Source of the DNA: a virus
Reading direction: 5' to 3' (one strand)
Virus record (IMG/VR): IMGVR_UViG_3300042504_002519
Span: 13,535-77,534 of that record
Length of the DNA stretch: 64,000 bases
Part shown: piece by piece, positions 5,451 to 62,498 of the stretch
Numbering within the stretch: position 1 is the first letter of the stretch
Layout: each line of letters opens with the position of its first letter
The notes under the pieces: generated by a model
Seen by the model: only the letters and a program-made list of their open reading frames with translations
Databases searched by the model: none
What the model was told of the DNA's origin: nothing
Made by a program: the position numbers and the translations under genes

Positions 5451-5538
5451 CTAGATCCTAGGAATAGACTAACACGATCCCTTATAGGGAACGGCGAAAC
5501 TCATAAGGGAAACCTATCAAGAGGATACTAGGAACTAC

Positions 5539-5568
5539 TTGACAGATACCAAGCCCAGGCCCTACTAT
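5539..5568 (+). promoter_or_regulatory. Sigma70-type promoter for the rightward early operon
   Basis: TTGACA-N18-TACTAT, divergent from the XRE gene. Confidence 0.6.
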
Positions 5569-6910: not shown

Positions 6911-7092
6911 GCGCCACCATCGCCCGGCTGCGCCCCTGCCTGGCCGGGCGGCTATCCATTTTTCTGCATACACGGGCCCAGTACTTACGCCAGATCATTG
7001 CTAGGCACCCTGAGGATGGGGCTGCACAGCACGAACTGGAGCTAGTGCTAGCCCAGATCCGATACCTACCCTTTATTGAGGAACGACCATGA
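6907..7092 (+). CDS. Hypothetical protein
   Basis: Overlapping stop/start coupling on both sides. Confidence 0.5.
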   Translation: MSATIARLRPCLAGRLSIFLHTRAQYLRQIIARHPEDGAAQHELELVLAQIRYLPFIEERP

Positions 7093-7469
7093 ACTTACCC
7101 GCTGACCCTACCCGCACCGAGATCTTGGCCTACCTGCTGGCCTACTCAGCCTACTGGCGGGGTGAACTAGAGAGCGCTATGGATGCGGCCAATGTGCCGT
7201 CGAGCAGCATTAACGCCATCCAGGGCGACTTATCTGCCGCCCTGTTTGCTGAAACGACCATGAACTTACCCGCTGACCCTACCCGCTCCGAGGTGCTGGC
7301 CTACCTGCTGGCCTACTCAGCCTACTGGCGGGGTGAACTAGAGAGCGCTATGGATGCGGCCAATGTGCCGTCGAGCAGCATTAACGCCATCCAGGGCGAC
7401 TTATCTGCCGCCCTGTTTGCTGAAATGGCCAGAGTAAACCAAGCCCGTATGGAGGATGACGGCCTATGA
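7089..7469 (+). CDS. Hypothetical protein made of a 171-bp tandem duplication
   Basis: MNLPADPTR... occurs twice, ATGs at 7089 and 7260. Confidence 0.55.
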   Translation: MNLPADPTRTEILAYLLAYSAYWRGELESAMDAANVPSSSINAIQGDLSAALFAETTMNLPADPTRSEVLAYLLAYSAYWRGELESAMDAANVPSSSINAIQGDLSAALFAEMARVNQARMEDDGL

Positions 7470-7907: not shown

Positions 7908-8768
7908 ATGTTGACCACGCGACGGCTATCAGATGAAGTCCTCGAAATCCGGATCCGCTACACCGGGGAGGAAACCTATCACTTTTTGTTGGCCAGCGAC
8001 ATTCACCTGGATAACCCAAAGTGTGATCGCAAGTTATTCTTTTCTCACCTCGACAAAATGAAGGCTCTCGGTGGTAGGGCCTTATTTTTTGGTGATGTGC
8101 TATGCCTGATGCAGGGCAAGCGCGACAAGCGGGGCAGCAAGGCCAGCATTCGCCCCGAGCACCAGGGCGCCAACTACTTTGACTTGGTATTCAAGGAGTC
8201 CGCTGACATTCTGGCACCCTACGGCCAGGAGATCCTAATGATGGGCAACGGCAACCATGAGACAGCCATCATCAACCACCAGGAGATAGATCCCCTGGCT
8301 AATGTGGTACAGCAGCTGCGGGGCCGCCACGGGGCCATCACCGAGCACATGGGCTATCAGGGCTGGATCCGGTTTGTGTTTTACAAAGAACGGGGCCGAG
8401 GCGTCGAGGCTGTTCGGCGGTGCAACCTGTTCTTTCACCACGGGGCCTGGGGTGGTATTGTCACCAAGGGCACCATGGGCGGTGGCCGGTATGCCAGCAT
8501 TGCACCGGACGCGGATATTATCGTCAATGGCCACAATCACGAGCGCAGCATCGTTTCTCACCCTTGCTACCGGTTGATCGAAACCGGCAAGGTGCGGGTG
8601 ACGCCCCGATACCACGTGCAGTCTGGCACCTACAAGGAGGAGTTCGCTGGTAGCAACGGCTGGGCGGTGGAGCGGATCGTCATGCCGAAATCTCTAGGCG
8701 GCGTCTGGCTGAGGCTGACTCCCACTAAGTCCGCTGGCGTTGTGGTTTCACTGGAACCGGCTAGCTGA
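7908..8768 (+). CDS. Calcineurin-like metallophosphoesterase
   Basis: SDIH, GD, GNHE, HHG and GHNH motifs. Confidence 0.85.
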   Translation: MLTTRRLSDEVLEIRIRYTGEETYHFLLASDIHLDNPKCDRKLFFSHLDKMKALGGRALFFGDVLCLMQGKRDKRGSKASIRPEHQGANYFDLVFKESADILAPYGQEILMMGNGNHETAIINHQEIDPLANVVQQLRGRHGAITEHMGYQGWIRFVFYKERGRGVEAVRRCNLFFHHGAWGGIVTKGTMGGGRYASIAPDADIIVNGHNHERSIVSHPCYRLIETGKVRVTPRYHVQSGTYKEEFAGSNGWAVERIVMPKSLGGVWLRLTPTKSAGVVVSLEPAS

Positions 8769-8780
8769 AATCGGTTAACT

Positions 8781-8824
8781 GTGCTATAGTAAAGGACAGG
8801 AACCTTGAAAATTTGGTGGTAAGT
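8781..8824 (+). promoter_or_regulatory. Leader of array A: extended -10 plus boxA
   Basis: TGCTATAGT followed by GAACCTTGAAAA; 36/44 identical to the array B leader. Confidence 0.75.
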
Positions 8825-8826
8825 CG

Positions 8827-9330
8827 ACCCACTTTGGTGGGAGTTTTTCAAGGTCTATCGTCAGTCACCCCTGCTACCGGCTATACTGGCCTGGATCCCA
8901 CTTCGGTGGGGGTTTTTCGCACTCAGTCGGTAGCCACTCGCGGCCAGCGCCAAAGCCTACCCCACCCCAGTGGGGGTTTATCTGGGAGTTTTTCGCCACC
9001 CCTGCTACCGGATGATCGAAACCACGCTGGCCTGGATCCCACCCTGGTGGGCGTTTTTCGCTCGATAAGGGATCCCCATTTTGGTGGGGGTGTATCCGAA
9101 GACTGGCAACGATATGGCCCCACTTCGGTGGGAGTGGTTCTTTCCCCGTGGTTAGCCCCGCGCTGGTGGGGGTGGCTCTCGCTTTGTGCCCGCCCCACCC
9201 TGGTGGGAGTTCGTCCCAACTCTGGTTGTACCCCATCCTGGTGGGGGTTTATCTTGACTATGGCGACTCCCCACTGCTGTGGGAGTGTGTCAATCTGCAG
9301 TTCGCCCCCCACTCTGGTGGGAGTAAAACC
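8827..9330 (+). CRISPR. Degenerate type I-E-like array A (11 repeats plus 1 partial)
   Basis: Hairpins at 8827, 8896, 8960, 9037, 9074, 9118, 9156, 9193, 9231, 9269, 9307; periods 69/64/77, then 37-44 nt. Confidence 0.75.
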
Positions 9331-9380
9331 CAATTGTAAGCAAATTGCGGTAGACTGGATTTGTTAGATGCACCACTCCG

Positions 9381-9405
9381 ACCCCGGCCACGGCTGGGGT
9401 TTTTT
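9381..9405 (+). terminator. Intrinsic terminator closing the array A transcript
   Basis: ACCCCGGCC-AC-GGCTGGGGTTTTTT. Confidence 0.75.
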
Positions 9406-9427
9406 GTTGCCTGGGCATTCTGGATCC

Positions 9428-10051
9428 ATGGCAACCAAGAAACCCACACCAAAGCTACGATCCAAGCATGCGCCCAAGCCAGCACCTGGTGCTAGGCGGG
9501 GCAACCGGCAGGTGGTAAAAACGTCCGGCCAGCCTGCTACGCCAGCCTGCAAGGAGCGGGCTTTTGAGCTGTACTGCGAGCTGGGGCCTCAATGGGCTGA
9601 AATATCCAGGCGACTGAAGGGCGAAGGCTTTAACCGCTGTGGCAATACCACGATCAGCGGCTGGGCCAAAGCAGGCGACTGGCACGCCAGAAAGCTGGCT
9701 TTGTCGGAGTCACCAGGCGAAGCGGCAAAGGTGCCCCACAAGGCCAAAGTAGCACCGCCCCCACCGCCTGCTACGGACATAGGCAGCTACCGCACCAAAA
9801 AGACCAACCTGGAGCACGTCAGGACGGCGATTGAGCAGGTGGTGCAGTCGATCTGCGACGCACGGGCCACCAGCGACCTGCGGGCCATTGGCAGCTTGGC
9901 TACGGCGTTGGTAAAGCTGATTGAGTTGGAAGGCAAATTGAGCCCCGCCACGGCATCCGAGCTAGCAGCCAGGGCCGTAGATCTGGGCCTGGATCCAGAG
10001 CAATTTATGGCCGCATTGGCGGAGCAATGGCGGATCGCCAAGGCTGGCTAG
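9428..10051 (+). CDS. HTH protein, probable terminase small subunit (DUF1804-like)
   Basis: RAFELY...AEISRRL...TTISGWAKAGDW pattern with a helical C-terminus; preceded by the late motif. Confidence 0.5.
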   Translation: MATKKPTPKLRSKHAPKPAPGARRGNRQVVKTSGQPATPACKERAFELYCELGPQWAEISRRLKGEGFNRCGNTTISGWAKAGDWHARKLALSESPGEAAKVPHKAKVAPPPPPATDIGSYRTKKTNLEHVRTAIEQVVQSICDARATSDLRAIGSLATALVKLIELEGKLSPATASELAARAVDLGLDPEQFMAALAEQWRIAKAG

Positions 10052-10681
10052 AACCCCCACCGTGGTGGGGATAGCCTAGCAAGTGAACAACGCCCACAGG
10101 GGTGGGGATGGTTTGACGAGGGAGAGACGCCCACGGAGGTGGGGCTGCGTCTTGCAGGCAGGATCAACGCCCACCAAAGTGGGGCTGGCTGCAAGGACGA
10201 GAGACCCCCACGGTGGTGGGATGTGATGCAGTTCTAGGAAGTACTCCCACCGAAGTGGGGAGGTGTTTGCGAGGGAGCTATCCACCGCCGCTAGGGTTTC
10301 CTTAGCGAGAAACCCCCACCGAAGTGGGGAGGTGTTTGCGAGTTGCCTAGCAGCTCCCCCAGGTTGGCCTGCTCGAGGAACCCCCACCGAAGTGGGGTGT
10401 GCTTGCGAGATGGCTAGGGTGATGGCACCCGACCTAGTAAGGCCAGAGAAACCCCCACCGGAGTGGGGTGTGCTTTGCGAGGGCCCAGCTGGATACCGTG
10501 GCATCGGAGCTATCCACCGAGAAACCCCCACCGGAGTGGGGTGTGCTTTGCGAGGACCGCCAAGCAACTTTAAGCAGGTGAAACAAAATGAGGAGAAACC
10601 CCCACCGAAGTGGGGAGGTGGTTGCGAGACACGGCGCTGGCCGATAGCCAAAACCACGAAAAACCCCCACCGGAGTAGGAT
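10047..10681 (-). CRISPR. Degenerate type I-E-like array B (12 repeats)
   Basis: Long repeat CTCGCAAACACCTCCCCACTTCGGTGGGGGTTTCTC with 29-38-nt spacers (periods 65-74), then five 37-40-nt units. Confidence 0.8.
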
Positions 10682-10689
10682 CCACCGTC

Positions 10690-10733
10690 ACTTACCACCA
10701 AGTTGTCAAGGTTCCTACCTACCACTATAGCAC
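10690..10733 (-). promoter_or_regulatory. Leader of array B: extended -10 plus boxA
   Basis: Reverse complement GTGCTATAGT-N7-AGGAACCTTGACAACTTGGTGGTAAGT. Confidence 0.75.
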
Positions 10734-10782
10734 GGATCCACCAGCCTGGGCACCCTATAAAAAATTCTCTGAGGGATCCACC

Positions 10783-10935
10783 ATGAGCGAGGACATCAAA
10801 GCCCAGGTCCGGGCCATTGCCCATGAAATTGCCCGCCGCGAGGTCTTTGAACACGAGCTCCGCTTCACTTTGTCCGGTGCCCTGCTGGGCGCTGTCGCGA
10901 TGCTAGCCTGGCTGGTAGCCACGGGGCGGTTCTGA
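10783..10935 (+). CDS. Small membrane protein
   Basis: MSEDIKAQ...SGALLGAVAMLAWLVATGRF (manual translation). Confidence 0.5.
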   Translation: MSEDIKAQVRAIAHEIARREVFEHELRFTLSGALLGAVAMLAWLVATGRF

Positions 10936-11201
10936 TGGACCTCCAGGCCATGCTGGATGAGCTAGACCGGCTAGGGGCCATCCTGGACGAGCTGGCCGGG
11001 GACAAGCCACAGCCACCCGGCTGGCCGCTGGGGGCGGATGAGGTTGACTATGGCCATGACATTCTGATCCGCCTGGACCGGGAAGAACCCTGCCGGATAT
11101 GCCAGCAGTTGGCCAACTGGGGATCGCTGTTATTGGGTGAGTATGTCTGCGGCCAGGGCTGCTACGATACCTTGATCTCCCCGTCCTGGGATCCTGCATA
11201 G
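10935..11201 (+). CDS. Hypothetical protein with CxxC...CxxxC
   Basis: TGATG coupling; Cys pattern. Confidence 0.5.
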   Translation: MDLQAMLDELDRLGAILDELAGDKPQPPGWPLGADEVDYGHDILIRLDREEPCRICQQLANWGSLLLGEYVCGQGCYDTLISPSWDPA

Positions 11202-11596
11202 CCTTCCTTGGCCAGCAGGAACCGCCCATCATAGCCATCCCCCACAAAAGCCCGCACAGCTTCGTAACCGACTGGCTGGATATACCAGACATAGGCAAAG
11301 TTCTTGGCCTCAGCGGTGCCTAGCAGGGTAGCTAGCTGGGCCGCTGTCACCTGAAGCAGGCCAGCTTGGCTGCTAGCGGTATTGGTGCTGCGGGTGATGC
11401 CAGATCCTATCGACAGGCTAAGGGCTGGCGTGGTGCTGATCGGCTTGAATTTCTTATCCAACTCAAAGAATCGCACCGATATGCTGGCGTTGACATAGTT
11501 GGTGACGGTATCGGCACTGGGGCGGGTAAACTGCCAGCTAAGCCCGGCTAGGCCAGCTCCTGCCAGCACCGTCTTTCCATTGAGTGCATCAGTCAC
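11162..11596 (-). CDS. Hypothetical virion protein (end of fibre cluster)
   Basis: Beta-rich ORF overlapping the upstream stop; start uncertain. Confidence 0.5.
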   Translation of the reverse strand: MTDALNGKTVLAGAGLAGLSWQFTRPSADTVTNYVNASISVRFFELDKKFKPISTTPALSLSIGSGITRSTNTASSQAGLLQVTAAQLATLLGTAEAKNFAYVWYIQPVGYEAVRAFVGDGYDGRFLLAKEGYAGSQDGEIKVS

Positions 11597-11870
11597 AATC
11601 GCAGTCCTCCAAGGTAAGTGTGGGCGCAATGGATCCAATATTCAGCCCTGCCATGATCGCCGCTACCGCTAGGGCTGGGGCCAGGGTGGCTAGGTCCAGG
11701 CTAGGGGCTAGGCTGGCCAGCGATAGGCTAGGGTGCTGGGCCAGTAGATGCAGGGCAGGGGCGAGGCTATCCAGGTGGATGCAGGGGATGCACTGCACGA
11801 TCAGCAGGGCGATTCCAGGGTGCAGCCCGAGGGGATAGAGGGTGCCGGTTAAGCCGAGTGGGTAGAGCAT
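11589..11870 (-). CDS. Small repetitive protein
   Basis: LYPLGL twice, LAP(A/S)L three times; GGGAG RBS. Confidence 0.45.
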   Translation of the reverse strand: MLYPLGLTGTLYPLGLHPGIALLIVQCIPCIHLDSLAPALHLLAQHPSLSLASLAPSLDLATLAPALAVAAIMAGLNIGSIAPTLTLEDCDCD

Positions 11871-13168: not shown

Positions 13169-14346
13169 TAGAATGTCCCTCCATCAATGATTGTGGCCCA
13201 GGAGATTGTATCGGTAGCGGCATCATAGGCTAGGATGCCATCAACACTGCCACCGCCATCTAGAGCGCTGATCGTGTCTACCGTATTGGCAACCAGGACA
13301 GCACCCTTGGGGATAGTAGTCAAGCCAGTGCCGCCATAAATAGCAGGAATGACTGAGCCATTCCATATACCAGTGGTGATGGTGCCAACGCTGGTCAGGC
13401 TGGAAGCCGTGACGCCAGAGCCCAGGGCGCTAGAGCTAAGGACGGATGTACCATTGATGTAAAACGCTTTGCCAGTCAGTAGGTTTAGATGTTCACTACT
13501 GGTCCAGGCGTCGGTTGCATCCACCCAGTTGAAGGTTTTGTCAGTGGTGCCCTTAAGGGTGATCCCGCCGCCATCTGCACCGGCATCCGTGGGAGAGGCC
13601 ACATCACCCAGGACAAAGTTTTTATCGTCAATGGTGACGGTCGTGCTGTTGATCGTGGTGGTGGTGCCATTGACGGTTAGATCGCCTGTGACGGTGACAT
13701 TGCTGCCAAAGGTGACGGGCTGGGTCGCCTGGGCCATCTGGTCTAATCGACTGGTCCGCACCTGGGTGTCGAAGTCGCTGATCTTAGCCGCTGTCAATGC
13801 AGGAATATCCTCCGCTACCAATGCCCTAAATGTGGGTGCTGCATTGGCCCCGGTCGTAGGTCCAGCAAACACTTGGTTGGCGGCTTGAGTAGCTAGGGCC
13901 GCCGTTAGGGTGCCGCTGGCCGTAACAGGCGATCCGGTGACGGTGAACAAGTTGGGAAGTGATAGTCCTACACTGGTGACGCTACCACCCCCGGCAGCAG
14001 ACACCACCGATTTGACGTAGGCTGTAGTGGCCAGTCGGGTAGAGTCATCGCTCGACGCCTGGGTGACGCCTGTAGCACTGTTAGTGCCGGTGCCAGAGAA
14101 AACACAGGGTCCAGAAAAGGTTTTCGTGCCAGTGACGGTCTGAGTTGTTCCCAGGGTGGTGTAGGCACCAGGGCCAGCAATGGCGTCAATCTGGCTAGCG
14201 GTCCCGTTTTCGCCGCCAGTACCTTTACCATAGTACAGAGTATTGTCAGCCTCGTTATAGGCTAGCTCAGCGTTGGCTAAGACAAGACCCTGAACCCCAA
14301 GAGCACCCGTAGAGGCGCGTCGTTTAATTCGGATGATATTAGACAT
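13168..14346 (-). CDS. Tail fibre protein
   Basis: IRIKR...ELAYNE N-terminus, GDLTVNGTTTTINST, ADGGGI, C-terminal IDGGTF. Confidence 0.75.
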   Translation of the reverse strand: MSNIIRIKRRASTGALGVQGLVLANAELAYNEADNTLYYGKGTGGENGTASQIDAIAGPGAYTTLGTTQTVTGTKTFSGPCVFSGTGTNSATGVTQASSDDSTRLATTAYVKSVVSAAGGGSVTSVGLSLPNLFTVTGSPVTASGTLTAALATQAANQVFAGPTTGANAAPTFRALVAEDIPALTAAKISDFDTQVRTSRLDQMAQATQPVTFGSNVTVTGDLTVNGTTTTINSTTVTIDDKNFVLGDVASPTDAGADGGGITLKGTTDKTFNWVDATDAWTSSEHLNLLTGKAFYINGTSVLSSSALGSGVTASSLTSVGTITTGIWNGSVIPAIYGGTGLTTIPKGAVLVANTVDTISALDGGGSVDGILAYDAATDTISWATIIDGGTF

Positions 14347-19341: not shown

Positions 19342-19397
19342 CTCCCACCATTGTGGGGCCTGCATCCCCTGGCCGAACCACTCCCACGCATGTGGGC
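19335..19397 (-). CRISPR. Two-repeat mini unit of the same hairpin family (39-nt period)
   Basis: Reverse complement GCCCACATGCGTGGGAGTGGTTCG-N15-CCCCACAATGGTGGGAGTCAAC. Confidence 0.55.
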
Positions 19398-54205: not shown

Positions 54206-54380
54206 GGGTTTTTCCCCCACCCCGTGGGGCCTGTCAAAAGCTACCGATCCACCCCCACCACAGCGGGGCCATCAACCCTGTAAGAGCCACCCCCACCTAG
54301 TGGGGCACAGGAGCTAAACCGATCAACTCCCACCGTAGTGGGCCAAAGAGTCGCATAGATCCACCCCCACACCCGTGGGG
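54206..54380 (-). CRISPR. Array C: 5 hairpin repeats, 37-38-nt period
   Basis: Hairpins at 54215, 54253, 54291, 54328, 54365; handles GTGGATCT, GTTGATCG, GTGGCTCT, GTGGATCG. Confidence 0.65.
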
Positions 54381-56564: not shown

Positions 56565-57922
56565 CAGTACTCCTCAAAGGTTGCATCGGAAAACCGCTGG
56601 TATTGCGGTTCGAAAAGAAGCTTCACGGTGCCGGTCGGGCCATTGCGGTTCTTGGTGACAATCACCTCGGCAATGCCCTTGTCTACGGACTCCGGGTCGT
56701 AGTACTCATCCCGGTACAGCATCATGATCAAGTCAGCGTCCTGCTCAATGGAGCCAGACTCGCGCAAATCGCTCATCAGGGGCCGCTTGTTGGTCCTGGA
56801 CTCGACGCCCCGGCTAAGCTGGCTAAGCACCAGCACCGGGCAGTCCAGCTCCCTGGCCAGCATCTTGAGGCTGCGGGTAAGGTGGCCTAGCTCCATGGCC
56901 CGGTTGCCACTGGCCTGGCCATCGGCCATCAACTGGAGGTAGTCGATCATGACTAGCCCCAGTGCACCATGGCGACGCTTTTGGCGGCGGCACTGACTGC
57001 GGATGTAGCTAAAGCTAGGCAAAGGGTTGTCGTCAATCCAAATCGGCCGATCCGCCAGGTTGGCAACGGTGCCAGCCAGGGTGGCCATTTGCTGAGCTGT
57101 AACCAATCCCTTTTTCATCAGGCCTGTTTCAATGCTTGCCTCTGCCGAGAATAACCTGTATCCAAGCTGCTGTCTACCCATCTCTAGCGAAAAGACGCAG
57201 GCTGTTAGTTGGGTTTTAACAGCCAAAAAATTAGCCAGGTTGAGGCTGAAGGCGGTCTTACCCATTGCAGGGCGGCCAGCGGCAATGATCAAGTCCCCGG
57301 GCATGAGCCCACCGTTTAGCATGACGTCCAACTGGGAGAAGCCGGTTTGATAGCCTGGCAGTTCCCGGCTCTCTAGCCTGGCCTCGACTTCGGTGTACAC
57401 CTCGGCAGCGACTTCGGCCATGGGCACCAGGCCACCGGTGGACTCCTGCAGCATCAGAGCCGATAGCTCAGCTTCTGCCCGCTCTAGCAAGGCATCCAGC
57501 GGCACTTTCTCGTGCTGTAGCTGCACCATCAGCTGGCCCAGCTTGCCTAGCCGACGCCGGGTCCAGGTTTCCATGACCTGCTGGCAGTGCAGATCGACTG
57601 CCGCACCACTGACGACGCTATCCAGGAAGCTGGCCAGGCCTGCCCGGCCACCGACCCTCTCCAACTGCTTGGCATCCAGCGCCATGGCCACCTGCAGCAT
57701 ATCGCAGGGGATGCCCCGGGCTAGCAGGCTAAGGCAGGTTTCGTACAACAGGCGGTGGGAGTCCAGGTAAAAGGCTTTAGGCGATAGCAGGTCCGAGACC
57801 TCTTCCAGCAGGTCCGGCTGGTAGAGCAAGGCACCCAGGATGGCGCGCTCTGCCTCGATGGCCTGGGGCGGCAATAGGCCATCCTCGCCCACAGGCACGG
57901 GTACTTTGACTTGAGCAATCAT
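56564..57922 (-). CDS. dnaB: Replicative DNA helicase
   Basis: GRPAMGKT, FSLEM, IDYLQL, LSQLSR, SDLRESGSIEQDAD, KNRNG. Confidence 0.97.
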   Translation of the reverse strand: MIAQVKVPVPVGEDGLLPPQAIEAERAILGALLYQPDLLEEVSDLLSPKAFYLDSHRLLYETCLSLLARGIPCDMLQVAMALDAKQLERVGGRAGLASFLDSVVSGAAVDLHCQQVMETWTRRRLGKLGQLMVQLQHEKVPLDALLERAEAELSALMLQESTGGLVPMAEVAAEVYTEVEARLESRELPGYQTGFSQLDVMLNGGLMPGDLIIAAGRPAMGKTAFSLNLANFLAVKTQLTACVFSLEMGRQQLGYRLFSAEASIETGLMKKGLVTAQQMATLAGTVANLADRPIWIDDNPLPSFSYIRSQCRRQKRRHGALGLVMIDYLQLMADGQASGNRAMELGHLTRSLKMLARELDCPVLVLSQLSRGVESRTNKRPLMSDLRESGSIEQDADLIMMLYRDEYYDPESVDKGIAEVIVTKNRNGPTGTVKLLFEPQYQRFSDATFEEY

Positions 57923-58839
57923 GCGTGTTCCCTCTGTTGGTGTTGGTTCATCTCCCGACGCACCCGCTCGTCATAGCTTTCCGTGGCCAGCTTAGCCTTT
58001 GGCCTGGCTGGCTGCAGGCTGGCTTGGTACTCAGCCCAGAGATATTCCAGTTTATCCCATTTGCCATCTCGCTCCAAGTTTGACACATGGTACATCGCCT
58101 TCGTCTTAGGGTTCATCTGCCCGTCAACAACAATGTGCTTGCCAGCAACCATGAACTCGCAGAACTTTGGCAAGATCTTGCCCCACCCATTCTCCCGCCA
58201 CGGCCTGGGCGCAAACTGGGCCGCGAATGGATCAGGCTTGGATGGATCCACTGCGGCCACCGGCGCGGCGGCGGGCGGCGCAACAGTTCTTTCCGGATCC
58301 AGCTTGCTGGTTTTCACTTTTTTTTCATTTTTGACAGGCGCAATAAAAAAAAGATCTTTGGATAGATCATCTGGATCTGTTCTTACTGGATAGATCGTCT
58401 GCAGATTCTGCACCCCCTCCCCTGCAGATTCTGCAGGCCCCCCCTGCATATTCTGCAGTACCCCCTGCATATTCTGCAGGCCCCCCCCTGCATATTCTGC
58501 AGTGGGGCGGGGTAATTTTGGGTCTGGTTCTGGATCCAGATCATTGGTTTGGATGGCACCAAAGTCGATGAATTGATCGCTTGAGGTTCGGCCGCCATCA
58601 GCCCTGAACCGATCAGTTAGCTGCAGGATGCCTTTAGCCTTGAGGCTATCCCGGGTTTGGTAGATCACTCGCTGACAAAGGCTAGTCATCCTGGCCTGGG
58701 TTTCCACTGACGGCCAGCACCGCCCGTCAGCGCCGATAAAGCTATTCAGGCAAAGTAGTAACAGCTTTTCGTTGCGGCTAAGGCTGGACTCCCAGATGAT
58801 TTGCTCGCGTTGATAAGCAGGGAGGAAAGTTGCGCCCAT
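57919..58839 (-). CDS. Replication initiator (N-terminal winged helix)
   Basis: CWPSVET.A....L..R.I......L...G.L; internal iterons; upstream of dnaB. Confidence 0.8.
   Translation of the reverse strand: MGATFLPAYQREQIIWESSLSRNEKLLLLCLNSFIGADGRCWPSVETQARMTSLCQRVIYQTRDSLKAKGILQLTDRFRADGGRTSSDQFIDFGAIQTNDLDPEPDPKLPRPTAEYAGGGLQNMQGVLQNMQGGPAESAGEGVQNLQTIYPVRTDPDDLSKDLFFIAPVKNEKKVKTSKLDPERTVAPPAAAPVAAVDPSKPDPFAAQFAPRPWRENGWGKILPKFCEFMVAGKHIVVDGQMNPKTKAMYHVSNLERDGKWDKLEYLWAEYQASLQPARPKAKLATESYDERVRREMNQHQQREHA
58399..58502. repeat. Origin iterons inside the initiator gene
   Basis: CTGCA(G/T)ATTCTGCA five times at about 22-bp spacing, next to A/T tracts. Confidence 0.8.
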
Positions 58840-58889
58840 AGGAACTCCTTGGGTTGAGGGTGGATAGGGGAAGGGAACACAAGACAGGG

Positions 58890-59324
58890 TTAGGCCAGGT
58901 AATAGGCTGAGTTTTTCCTGACAAACATGGGGCTGTGGATGGCAACCGCCCGGCCATAGAGGCCCAGCTGTAGCCCAATCTGATAGCGCACCACATAGCG
59001 CTTGCCTTTCATGAGCGCCACGATCTGCCGCTCGTAGTCGGCAAAGCATTCTGGCTCCATGGCCTGGGCTAGCCATTCGCTGGCCTGCATGGCTACCTGG
59101 CGCTTAATGGCCTTAACCTCTGGCGGGGTAGTATTCTCTGGATCATGGGCCACTGGATCCAGGCGTTCGCCAGCCACTAGCCGGGCATAGCGCAGGGCAC
59201 TAGCCGGGTCGTAGGTCAGCATGGACTCAAACACAAGTAGACGCCCCTTCAAGTTGAGGGCACGCCAGTGCTGTGGCTGCAACTGACGGACCACGGAGGG
59301 AGCGGTTAAGGTAGCGCTCCTCAT
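58890..59324 (-). CDS. Hypothetical protein
   Basis: Coupled ORF. Confidence 0.55.
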   Translation of the reverse strand: MRSATLTAPSVVRQLQPQHWRALNLKGRLLVFESMLTYDPASALRYARLVAGERLDPVAHDPENTTPPEVKAIKRQVAMQASEWLAQAMEPECFADYERQIVALMKGKRYVVRYQIGLQLGLYGRAVAIHSPMFVRKNSAYYLA

Positions 59325-62414: not shown

Positions 62415-62498
62415 CCCCACGCTAGTGGGGGTGGATCTGATGGCCTTTTTGCCGTTTTAGCCGCGTTCCCAAGACCCCACCATTGTGGGGGTGAGCGG
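62415..62498 (+). CRISPR. Repeat-spacer-repeat mini-array D (60-nt period)
   Basis: CCCCACGCTAGTGGGGGTGGATCT-spacer-CCCCACCATTGTGGGGGTGAGCGG. Confidence 0.65.

Follow-up and report, generated by a model that had tools for sequence, protein, structure and literature searches.

The stretch of viral DNA analyzed here, called the window, comprises 64,000 nucleotides (nt) of a 77.5-kilobase (kb) virus record (positions 13,535 to 77,534 of IMG/VR record IMGVR_UViG_3300042504_002519). Its minus strand carries a repeat-spacer locus, Array B, which is a genuine CRISPR guide array and belongs to a phage-encoded type I-E derivative that likely lacks Cas3 and the adaptation machinery. An earlier note, made from the letters of the sequence alone, had read the spacers as resembling diverged homologues of the phage's own virion genes and had proposed related phages as their targets. 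The main result of the present analysis is a correction: the array is real, but the resemblance to virion genes is due to chance. Related phages are still our best reading of the targets, now on other evidence, namely a target tiled by several spacers, the arrays of relatives, the composition of the spacers, and the lack of host matches in the collections searched, and the support that these give is indirect.

The source is a temperate freshwater phage of about 75 kb, which encodes a large terminase, a portal protein, a tail sheath, and a tape measure protein together with an integrase and a SigF-like sigma factor. Four phage records were compared: the present one (G000) and three sister phages in IMG/VR (G001-G003), whose Cas7e proteins are 83-95% identical.

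Organization of Array B

Seven units occupy positions 10238-10693 on the minus strand, with start-to-start distances of 65, 74, 73, 71, 68, and 69 nt (Table 1). The full repeat is 36 nt long and consists of a 13-nt extension of the CTCGCAA type, a 16-nt hairpin (CCCCAC-N4-GTGGGG), and a 7-nt tail (GTTTCTC). When folded in isolation, it forms a hairpin of 6-7 pairs followed by the 7-nt tail, and its ends are single-stranded. These coordinates and spacings confirm the earlier description of 65-74-nt units in which 13 nt precede a type I-E-like hairpin, and the six spacers are located exactly where they had been placed. The array is longer than the span first recognized, since a leader upstream and five degenerate units downstream, in the direction of transcription, can be added to it. 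The last of the degenerate units overlaps the stop codon of the neighboring gene (9428-10051), into which Array B runs antisense, with no terminator before that gene.

Conservation of the repeat was evaluated over 65 long units from the four phage records. The hairpin stem and the GT..TC tail hardly vary, the loop is variable, and the extension is only moderately conserved; over ~120 units, conservation of the stem is strict. The hairpin is present in ~50 copies in the phage record, mostly within four arrays, and a leader of ~60 nt is common to all four of these and to the homologous arrays of relatives. The leader-fused form of the first unit is the same in all arrays of the phage family. A two-hexamer promoter scan returned nothing in the Array B leader, and the -10-like element within it marks the leader as a putative promoter. 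At the gathering score no Rfam CRISPR-DR model was matched, and relaxing the limit to E = 10 brought out nothing within 8500-11000. Outside the arrays, the 13-nt extension has no complement.

Table 1. Features of Array B and the adjoining gene, in window coordinates
Feature	Position	Strand	Description
Array B	10048-10760	-	leader, seven 36-nt repeats, six spacers, and five spacer-less degenerate units
Leader of Array B	10694-10760	-	TGnTATAGT extended -10-like element at 10724-10732
Repeat 1	10658-10693	-	leader-fused; hairpin with one G-U pair, plus tail; leader sequence instead of the CTCGCAA extension
Spacer 1	10629-10657	-	29 nt; nothing above shuffles, no match in the collections searched
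Repeat 2	10593-10628	-	36 nt
Spacer 2	10555-10592	-	38 nt; no target found in the collections searched
Repeat 3	10519-10554	-	36 nt
Spacer 3	10482-10518	-	37 nt; middle piece of the tiled target
Repeat 4	10446-10481	-	36 nt
Spacer 4	10411-10445	-	35 nt; two CTAG
Repeat 5	10375-10410	-	variant; extension shifted by 1 nt, GGTTCCTC tail
Spacer 5	10343-10374	-	32 nt; compared with the tape measure gene in the earlier note
Repeat 6	10307-10342	-	36 nt; 7-pair hairpin when folded, tails single-stranded
Spacer 6	10274-10306	-	33 nt; first piece of the tiled target
Repeat 7	10238-10273	-	last unit with full extension; degenerate tail
Five degenerate units	10048-10234	-	37-40-nt periods; hairpin and GT..TC retained; 0-4 nt between units
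207-amino-acid gene adjoining Array B	9428-10051	+	no Pfam or PHROG family found

Lone or paired hairpins without a leader also occur outside the arrays, at window positions 19344-19396, 54329-54379, and 62416-62489 and, in G000 coordinates, at 1089, 5515-5565, 7285-7376, and 12374. Some of them stand directly after genes, including within the cas operon, and they could be Cas6e sites on messenger RNAs or decoys. On the plus strand, a strong intrinsic-terminator-like hairpin (9 pairs and a T-run) is located at window positions 9380-9401, directly after a sister array, A3; this hairpin accounts for a weak, sub-threshold Rfam match to NsiR1 at 9362-9408.

Cas proteins encoded by the phage

Genes for Cas6e, Cas7e, and Cas5e, overlooked in the earlier note, sit between arrays A1 and A2 on the same record, ~16 kb upstream of Array B. 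Cas7e was identified by PF09344 (E = 2e-66) and TIGR01869, in each case above the cut-off, and Cas5e scored above the cut-offs of both PF09704 (E = 1e-29) and TIGR01868 (E = 4e-31). Cas6e matched PF08798 above its cut-off (E = 1e-26) and reached 44.5 bits with TIGR01907, for which the cut-off is 45.2. A gene divergent from cas6e-cas7e-cas5e encodes a Cse1-like protein of 272 amino acids (aa); the Cse1 family PF09481 was matched by 7 of its 14 family members, and a profile of this protein family matches the N-terminus of Thermus CasA in the PDB (E = 2.5e-4). In the cas6e-cas7e-cas5e operon, the product of the first gene has 214 aa, contains a D...EVK motif, and gives a weak Pfam match of the restriction-endonuclease-like kind. 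Its AlphaFold model was too poor to classify (predicted local distance difference test score 37), a profile search of the PDB with it was empty, and it did not match Cse2.

Six-frame searches of the four phage records, which are an estimated 38-79% complete and include one sister with terminal repeats, gave no match to Cas1 (PF01867), the Cas3 core (TIGR01587), full-length Cse1 (PF09481, ~500 aa), or Cse2/Cas11 (PF09485); Cas2 was not searched separately. Csf2 of type IV was not matched in the four records either. Because the records are incomplete, Cas1, Cas3, full Cse1, Cse2, and Csf2 are likely, though not certainly, absent.

Spacer turnover among relatives

A metagenome scan with the gene adjoining Array B as the query yielded six more contigs, and a Cas7e alignment scan of IMG/VR recovered only relatives that were already known. 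The leader end of the homologous array is present in seven records, and among their 31 spacer slots a single pair is identical. The records with the homologous array are 90-94% identical in the DNA of the flanking gene and share degenerate trailer units; those of Array B recur in relatives G003 and L039. Variability at the leader combined with conservation at the far end is a signature of CRISPR arrays.

In three lake-water metagenomes, contigs link the same repeats across many other inserts of 28-38 nt, one of which resembles a spacer of sister G001. These contigs may derive from any array of the family and therefore show that the family has a diverse spacer repertoire, rather than reporting on the Array B locus. 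Across the phage family, spacers range from 24 to 46 nt and periods from 60 to 82 nt, and spacer lengths this variable argue against capture by the Cas1-Cas2 ruler of type I-E.

A target tiled by three spacers

The earlier note had observed that spacers 10482-10518 (spacer 3) and 10274-10306 (spacer 6) overlap by 13 nt and had proposed that they tile one target. The overlap was confirmed: the end of spacer 6 is the start of spacer 3, and none of 300 shuffle sets reached 13 nt. The tile is extended by a relative, in that the last 15 nt of spacer 3 are the start of a spacer in the same-locus array of L039 (minus strand, starting at ~1891). Three spacers from two phages, all in one orientation, thus combine into a tiled sequence of 82 nt, whose reverse frame is open and starts with a methionine codon. 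The tiled spacers are repeated samples of a real target, of which no copy was found in the collections searched.

The 3' neighbor that can be read from the tile for two spacers is GAT, as it also is for the protospacer of A3 spacer 1 in relatives (n = 3). In these three cases GAT is located on the side opposite to that of the expected type I protospacer adjacent motif (PAM).

Matches of family spacers to relatives' genes

Indirect evidence that rival phages are the targets comes from relatives, in which the unit or spacer at the Array B locus can be aligned with the gene adjoining Array B. A unit at this locus in relative L042 matches the gene of the present phage at 27 of 27 nt (window 9979-10005) and likewise matches five other family members, whereas L042's own allele of the adjacent gene has only a 16-nt run. 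The first spacer of relative G003 matches window positions 9925-9951 at 24 of 28 nt, and in both relatives the match to the present phage is better than that to their own alleles. From these alignments, the present phage appears to be targeted by its relatives' arrays. Its own sister array A3 has a match of 26/27 nt to the relatives' upstream exonuclease gene, as compared with 25/27 nt to the phage's own copy. Matching of a rival's allele combined with a mutated own allele is seen in the relatives' arrays at the Array B locus and in A3; for the spacers of Array B itself, no target was found in the collections searched.

The composition of the spacers was also evaluated. The earlier note had remarked that several spacers contain CTAG, as the genome does, and this holds: CTAG occurs four times in the 204 spacer nt of Array B (P ~0.03), and the genome rate is 5.6 per kb. 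Over all 49 spacers the rate is 5.5 per kb, compared with 5.6 for the phage family and 2.2 (2.5-fold lower) for a small cyanobacterial sample. The CTAG density is weakly indicative of a phage-family origin of the spacers.

CTAG is normally avoided, and an excess of it is unusual. In all four phages (G000 and sisters G001-G003), its frequency is 1.5 times that expected from mononucleotide composition, and for GGATCC the factor is 3.5-4.

Searches for the targets of Array B

The resemblance to virion genes proposed in the earlier note was tested against shuffled controls, as that note had itself suggested for the peptide similarities. The likeness of spacer 5 to the tape measure gene exists as described, with 20 of 32 nt and 7 of 10 residues matching (EQANLGELLG versus EQAPIGELLA), but it does not rise above chance: 20/32 is the mean best match of shuffled spacers (20.2), and the peptide score (BLOSUM62, 33 by hand count) is below the shuffle mean of 35. 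The peptide of the tiled spacers, which had tentatively been likened to the 11162 gene, failed both ungapped and gapped shuffle controls, as did comparisons with this genome, the four sister genomes (in any frame), and the fragments; the 82-nt tile gave no better match than the shorter one. Genes homologous to the phage's own are indeed targeted by sister arrays. With neither nucleotide nor peptide similarities exceeding those of shuffled sequences, however, an origin of the Array B spacers in diverged homologues of the tape measure and 11162 genes is refuted by the earlier note's own criterion and extremely unlikely.

Each of the six spacers was then compared with larger collections. Nothing above shuffles was obtained in the phage's own genome at the nucleotide or peptide level, and no protospacer was present in the three sister genomes and 14 related fragments. 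INPHARED (50,697 phage records) returned only noise at E = 7, and PLSDB (72,556 plasmids) returned one match at E = 0.1, in a cold-shock gene. No protospacer was found in 401 cyanobacterial genomes, where weak matches of spacer 5 clustered in three unrelated genes, nor was there a spacer match in two metagenome-assembled genomes (MAGs) with related portal genes. An IMG/VR search limited to spacer 3, made with one wobble-tolerant pattern, gave no match. The A2 array and the L039 array had no match in the phage collection. In the reverse direction, the phage was not matched by host spacers, taken from type I-E arrays of three cyanobacterial loci, the best alignment being 23/32. Matches to host or unrelated DNA, which the earlier note had regarded as telling against related phages, were thus not found in the collections searched.

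Several alignments were set aside. Spacer 3 aligns at 26/37 nt in G001 and spacer 5 has a match of 23/32 nt; both were judged to be chance, with no frame-consistent pattern. The best self-match of spacer 4, 25/35 nt within the sheath gene, shows no codon pattern and was judged likewise. Spacer 5 shares 15 exact nt with cas7e, a match we consider marginal.

Proposed mechanism and alternatives

Array B would be one of four arrays that supply guide RNAs to the phage's stripped-down type I-E-like effector. By analogy with type I-E, we infer that transcription begins in the conserved leader and proceeds leftwards along the minus strand and that the phage Cas6e cuts after each hairpin, giving guides composed of a 7-nt 5' tag, a spacer of 29-38 nt, the constant 13-nt segment, and the hairpin. 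Cas7e, Cas5e, and the short Cse1-like subunit would take up these guides. The differing repeat tail suggests that the guides are matched to the phage's own Cas5e and not to that of the host. The assembled complex would most likely recognize DNA from rival relatives or from other mobile elements that share the host, such that a cell carrying the temperate phage would resist them. With no Cas3 encoded, the complex would bind and silence its target, or else a recruited nuclease would cut it, a role for which the neighboring PD-(D/E)xK-like gene is a candidate. On balance, we consider it probable that the Array B guides are used against competing relatives or other mobile elements.

A number of results weigh against this account. 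For none of the six spacers was a protospacer found in the phage's own genome or in the sisters, fragments, phages, plasmids, and cyanobacteria that were searched. The relatives' spacers match this phage imperfectly at the 5' end, the place where a type I system would have its seed, and the expected PAM side showed no consistent motif. With Cas1, Cas3, and Cse2 not found in the four records, both spacer turnover and target destruction are left without a known agent. The spread of spacer lengths in the family also differs from the fixed 32-33 nt of type I-E. A further reading, which we regard as tentative and on the doubtful side, is that the phage possesses a self-contained RNA-guided system, free of Cas3, Cas1, Cas2, and Cas11, that nevertheless renews its guides quickly in nature. 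Spacer capture would then proceed without the Cas1-Cas2 ruler of type I-E, given spacers of 24-46 nt, repeats of 36 nt, and captures that overlap on one 82-nt target. A recombination-like process drawing on co-infecting relatives would be a candidate route of capture, and the constant 13-nt segment would either belong to a Cascade of altered size or serve the capture as a handle.

The main rival explanation is that the guides are programmable repressors of host genes or of the phage's own genes, a Cascade lacking Cas3 binding its target and silencing transcription there, and the partial matches to the adjacent gene reflecting autoregulation. No nuclease-helicase was found in the four records; family spacers match the gene adjoining the array, with a 16-nt run retained in the carrier's own allele; Array B lies antisense to that gene with no intervening terminator; and nuclease-less systems of huge phages have been proposed to repress their targets (PMC7162821). 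Set against these points, the six spacers match nothing in their own phage above shuffles, and the 401 cyanobacterial genomes gave no matches beyond weak ones in unrelated genes. Moreover, rivals' alleles are matched better than the carrier's own, and spacers differ wholly between near-identical relatives, a pattern more in keeping with an arms race than with conserved regulation. We therefore hold regulation to be unlikely. A lesser rival, relevant mostly to the spacer-less distal units, is that the repeat hairpins act as an RNA decoy, in the manner of RNA anti-CRISPRs (Racrs), and soak up the host's Cas6e and Cas7e, thereby shielding the phage from CRISPR immunity of the host. Racrs mimic repeats and are located in viral genomes, and two of type I-E were functional (PMC10651486); the phage repeat has exactly the stem of the cellular type I-E repeats of cyanobacteria, Array B ends in five hairpin units without spacers, and single hairpins are found elsewhere in the genome. 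The phage has its own Cas6e, Cas7e, and Cas5e, however, its leader-proximal spacers turn over and tile a real target, its 3' tail and 5' extension differ from cellular repeats, and a Cas7e homologue is present in only 3 of the 401 sampled cyanobacterial genomes. For Array B, a decoy function is accordingly quite improbable.

It is more improbable again, and in our estimation very much so, that the array does not work at all, being either a relic in decay or a group of hairpins with a structural role, such as that of terminators or protein-binding repeats. A terminator scan does flag the hairpins, no Rfam CRISPR repeat family was matched, the distal units are degenerate, and repeat variants differ within Array B. 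Yet the genome carries cas genes for this repeat type, the leader and trailer are conserved while spacer turnover is polarized, the stem is strictly maintained over ~120 units, and spacers match the genes of relatives. Guides directed against competing relatives or other mobile elements thus remain the reading that we prefer.

Comparison with known systems

The nearest named homologues of the phage Cas7e are cyanobacterial and ~33-36% identical, and a homologue was detected in 3/401 sampled cyanobacterial genomes. One sampled genome, G105, contains a complete cas3-cse1-cse2-cas7-cas5-cas6e-cas1 locus with 59 repeats (locus L048, contig 17, 5462-17746), and no spacer of this type I-E system matches the phage. 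Its Cas6e, Cas7e, and Cas5e are homologous to those of the phage (42% identity for Cas7e), and its repeat has the same CCCCAC/GTGGGG stem followed by GT. The canonical G105 repeats are 29 nt long with a strict period of 61-62 nt, their stem being preceded by 5 nt and their tail being 8 nt long, whereas the phage repeat is 36 nt long, with 8 nt added before the stem, a different 7-nt tail, and a period in Array B of 65-74 nt. The shared stem and GT together with the added 8 nt uphold the description of an extended type I-E-like repeat. The effectors differ as well: G105 encodes Cas3, a 560-aa Cse1, Cse2, and Cas1, in contrast to the phage, in which the Cse1-like protein has 272 aa and Cas3, Cse2, and Cas1 were not found.

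Among virus-borne arrays, the mini-CRISPR arrays of the Saccharolobus portogloboviruses SPV1 and SPV2 have a promoter-bearing leader and occupy the same position in relatives with different spacers; these spacers hit array-proximal genes of closely related viruses, and of these genes the carrier itself has a mutated allele (PMC6858448). The SPV1/SPV2 arrays hold 1-2 spacers, are not accompanied by viral cas genes, and have host-like repeats and leaders (PMC6858448). Array B, on the other hand, has six spacers and degenerate units and is associated with the phage's own Cas6e, Cas7e, Cas5e, and short Cse1; its repeat, again in contrast to SPV1/SPV2, is unlike the cellular type I-E repeats sampled. 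CRISPR-Cas systems of huge phages are without Cas1, Cas2, and Cas4 and often without an interference nuclease, and they have short arrays in which some spacers hit competing phages (PMC7162821). The present phage differs from these in its size of ~75 kb rather than >200 kb and in its type I-E derivative with four dispersed arrays under one type of leader, extended repeats, and a composite of long and spacer-less units.

The type I-E variants I-E2 (Cas5-HNH) and I-E3 (PD-(D/E)xK fused to Cas11) lack Cas3 or have added nucleases (PMC12669027, PMC10910872). The phage system likewise has a type I-E backbone without Cas3 and a nuclease-like gene in first position in the cas operon. No HNH domain was seen in it, however, and the nuclease-like protein is separate; in addition, I-E2 and I-E3 are not described as phage-borne with multiple arrays (PMC12669027, PMC10910872). 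Racrs, finally, are repeat-like hairpins in viral genomes that are sometimes without spacers and stand behind promoters (PMC10651486). The distal units of Array B and the solitary hairpins resemble them, but Racrs mimic the host repeat and have no cognate cas genes, while the phage has cas genes and its proximal units hold real spacers. Phage-borne CRISPR (PMC7162821), interviral mini-arrays (PMC6858448), and Cas3-less type I-E systems (PMC12669027) are thus known kinds, and the present combination is a variant of them.

Host and other features of the phage

The host is likely a cyanobacterium. The SigF-like group 3 sigma factor is encoded before the window, at G000 positions 11086-11676, and the model that it matches best is one of cyanobacterial SigF. 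Two MAGs contain portal genes related to that of the phage (loci L029 and L030): a 6.7-kb contig binned in a Lake Mendota Caulobacterales MAG encodes a portal 98% identical to the phage portal, and the portal in a MAG of the cyanobacterium Trichocoleus is 56% identical. The Caulobacterales binning of the portal-bearing contig may be an artefact.

Two tandem repeats were noted elsewhere in the window. At positions 58399-58503, within a replication-initiator-like gene (57919-59076), a 23-nt unit with CTGCAG...CTGCAG palindromes is repeated in tandem 4.7 times, and these copies look like origin iterons. A 171-nt tandem duplication (97% identical) at 7082-7425 extends across the open reading frame 7089-7469.

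Implications

The short Cse1, short Cas5e, Cas7e, and Cas6e, without Cas11 or Cas3, make up a natural minimal Cascade and possibly a small programmable DNA binder, and the rapid turnover of spacers without adaptation genes in the phage poses a testable question as to how spacers are acquired. If the proposed use of the guides is correct, complete guide-plus-effector kits directed against the closest relatives are carried by temperate phages of ordinary size and not only by huge ones. The alleles beside the arrays would then be a battleground, leading to local diversification, and perhaps speciation, of lake phages.

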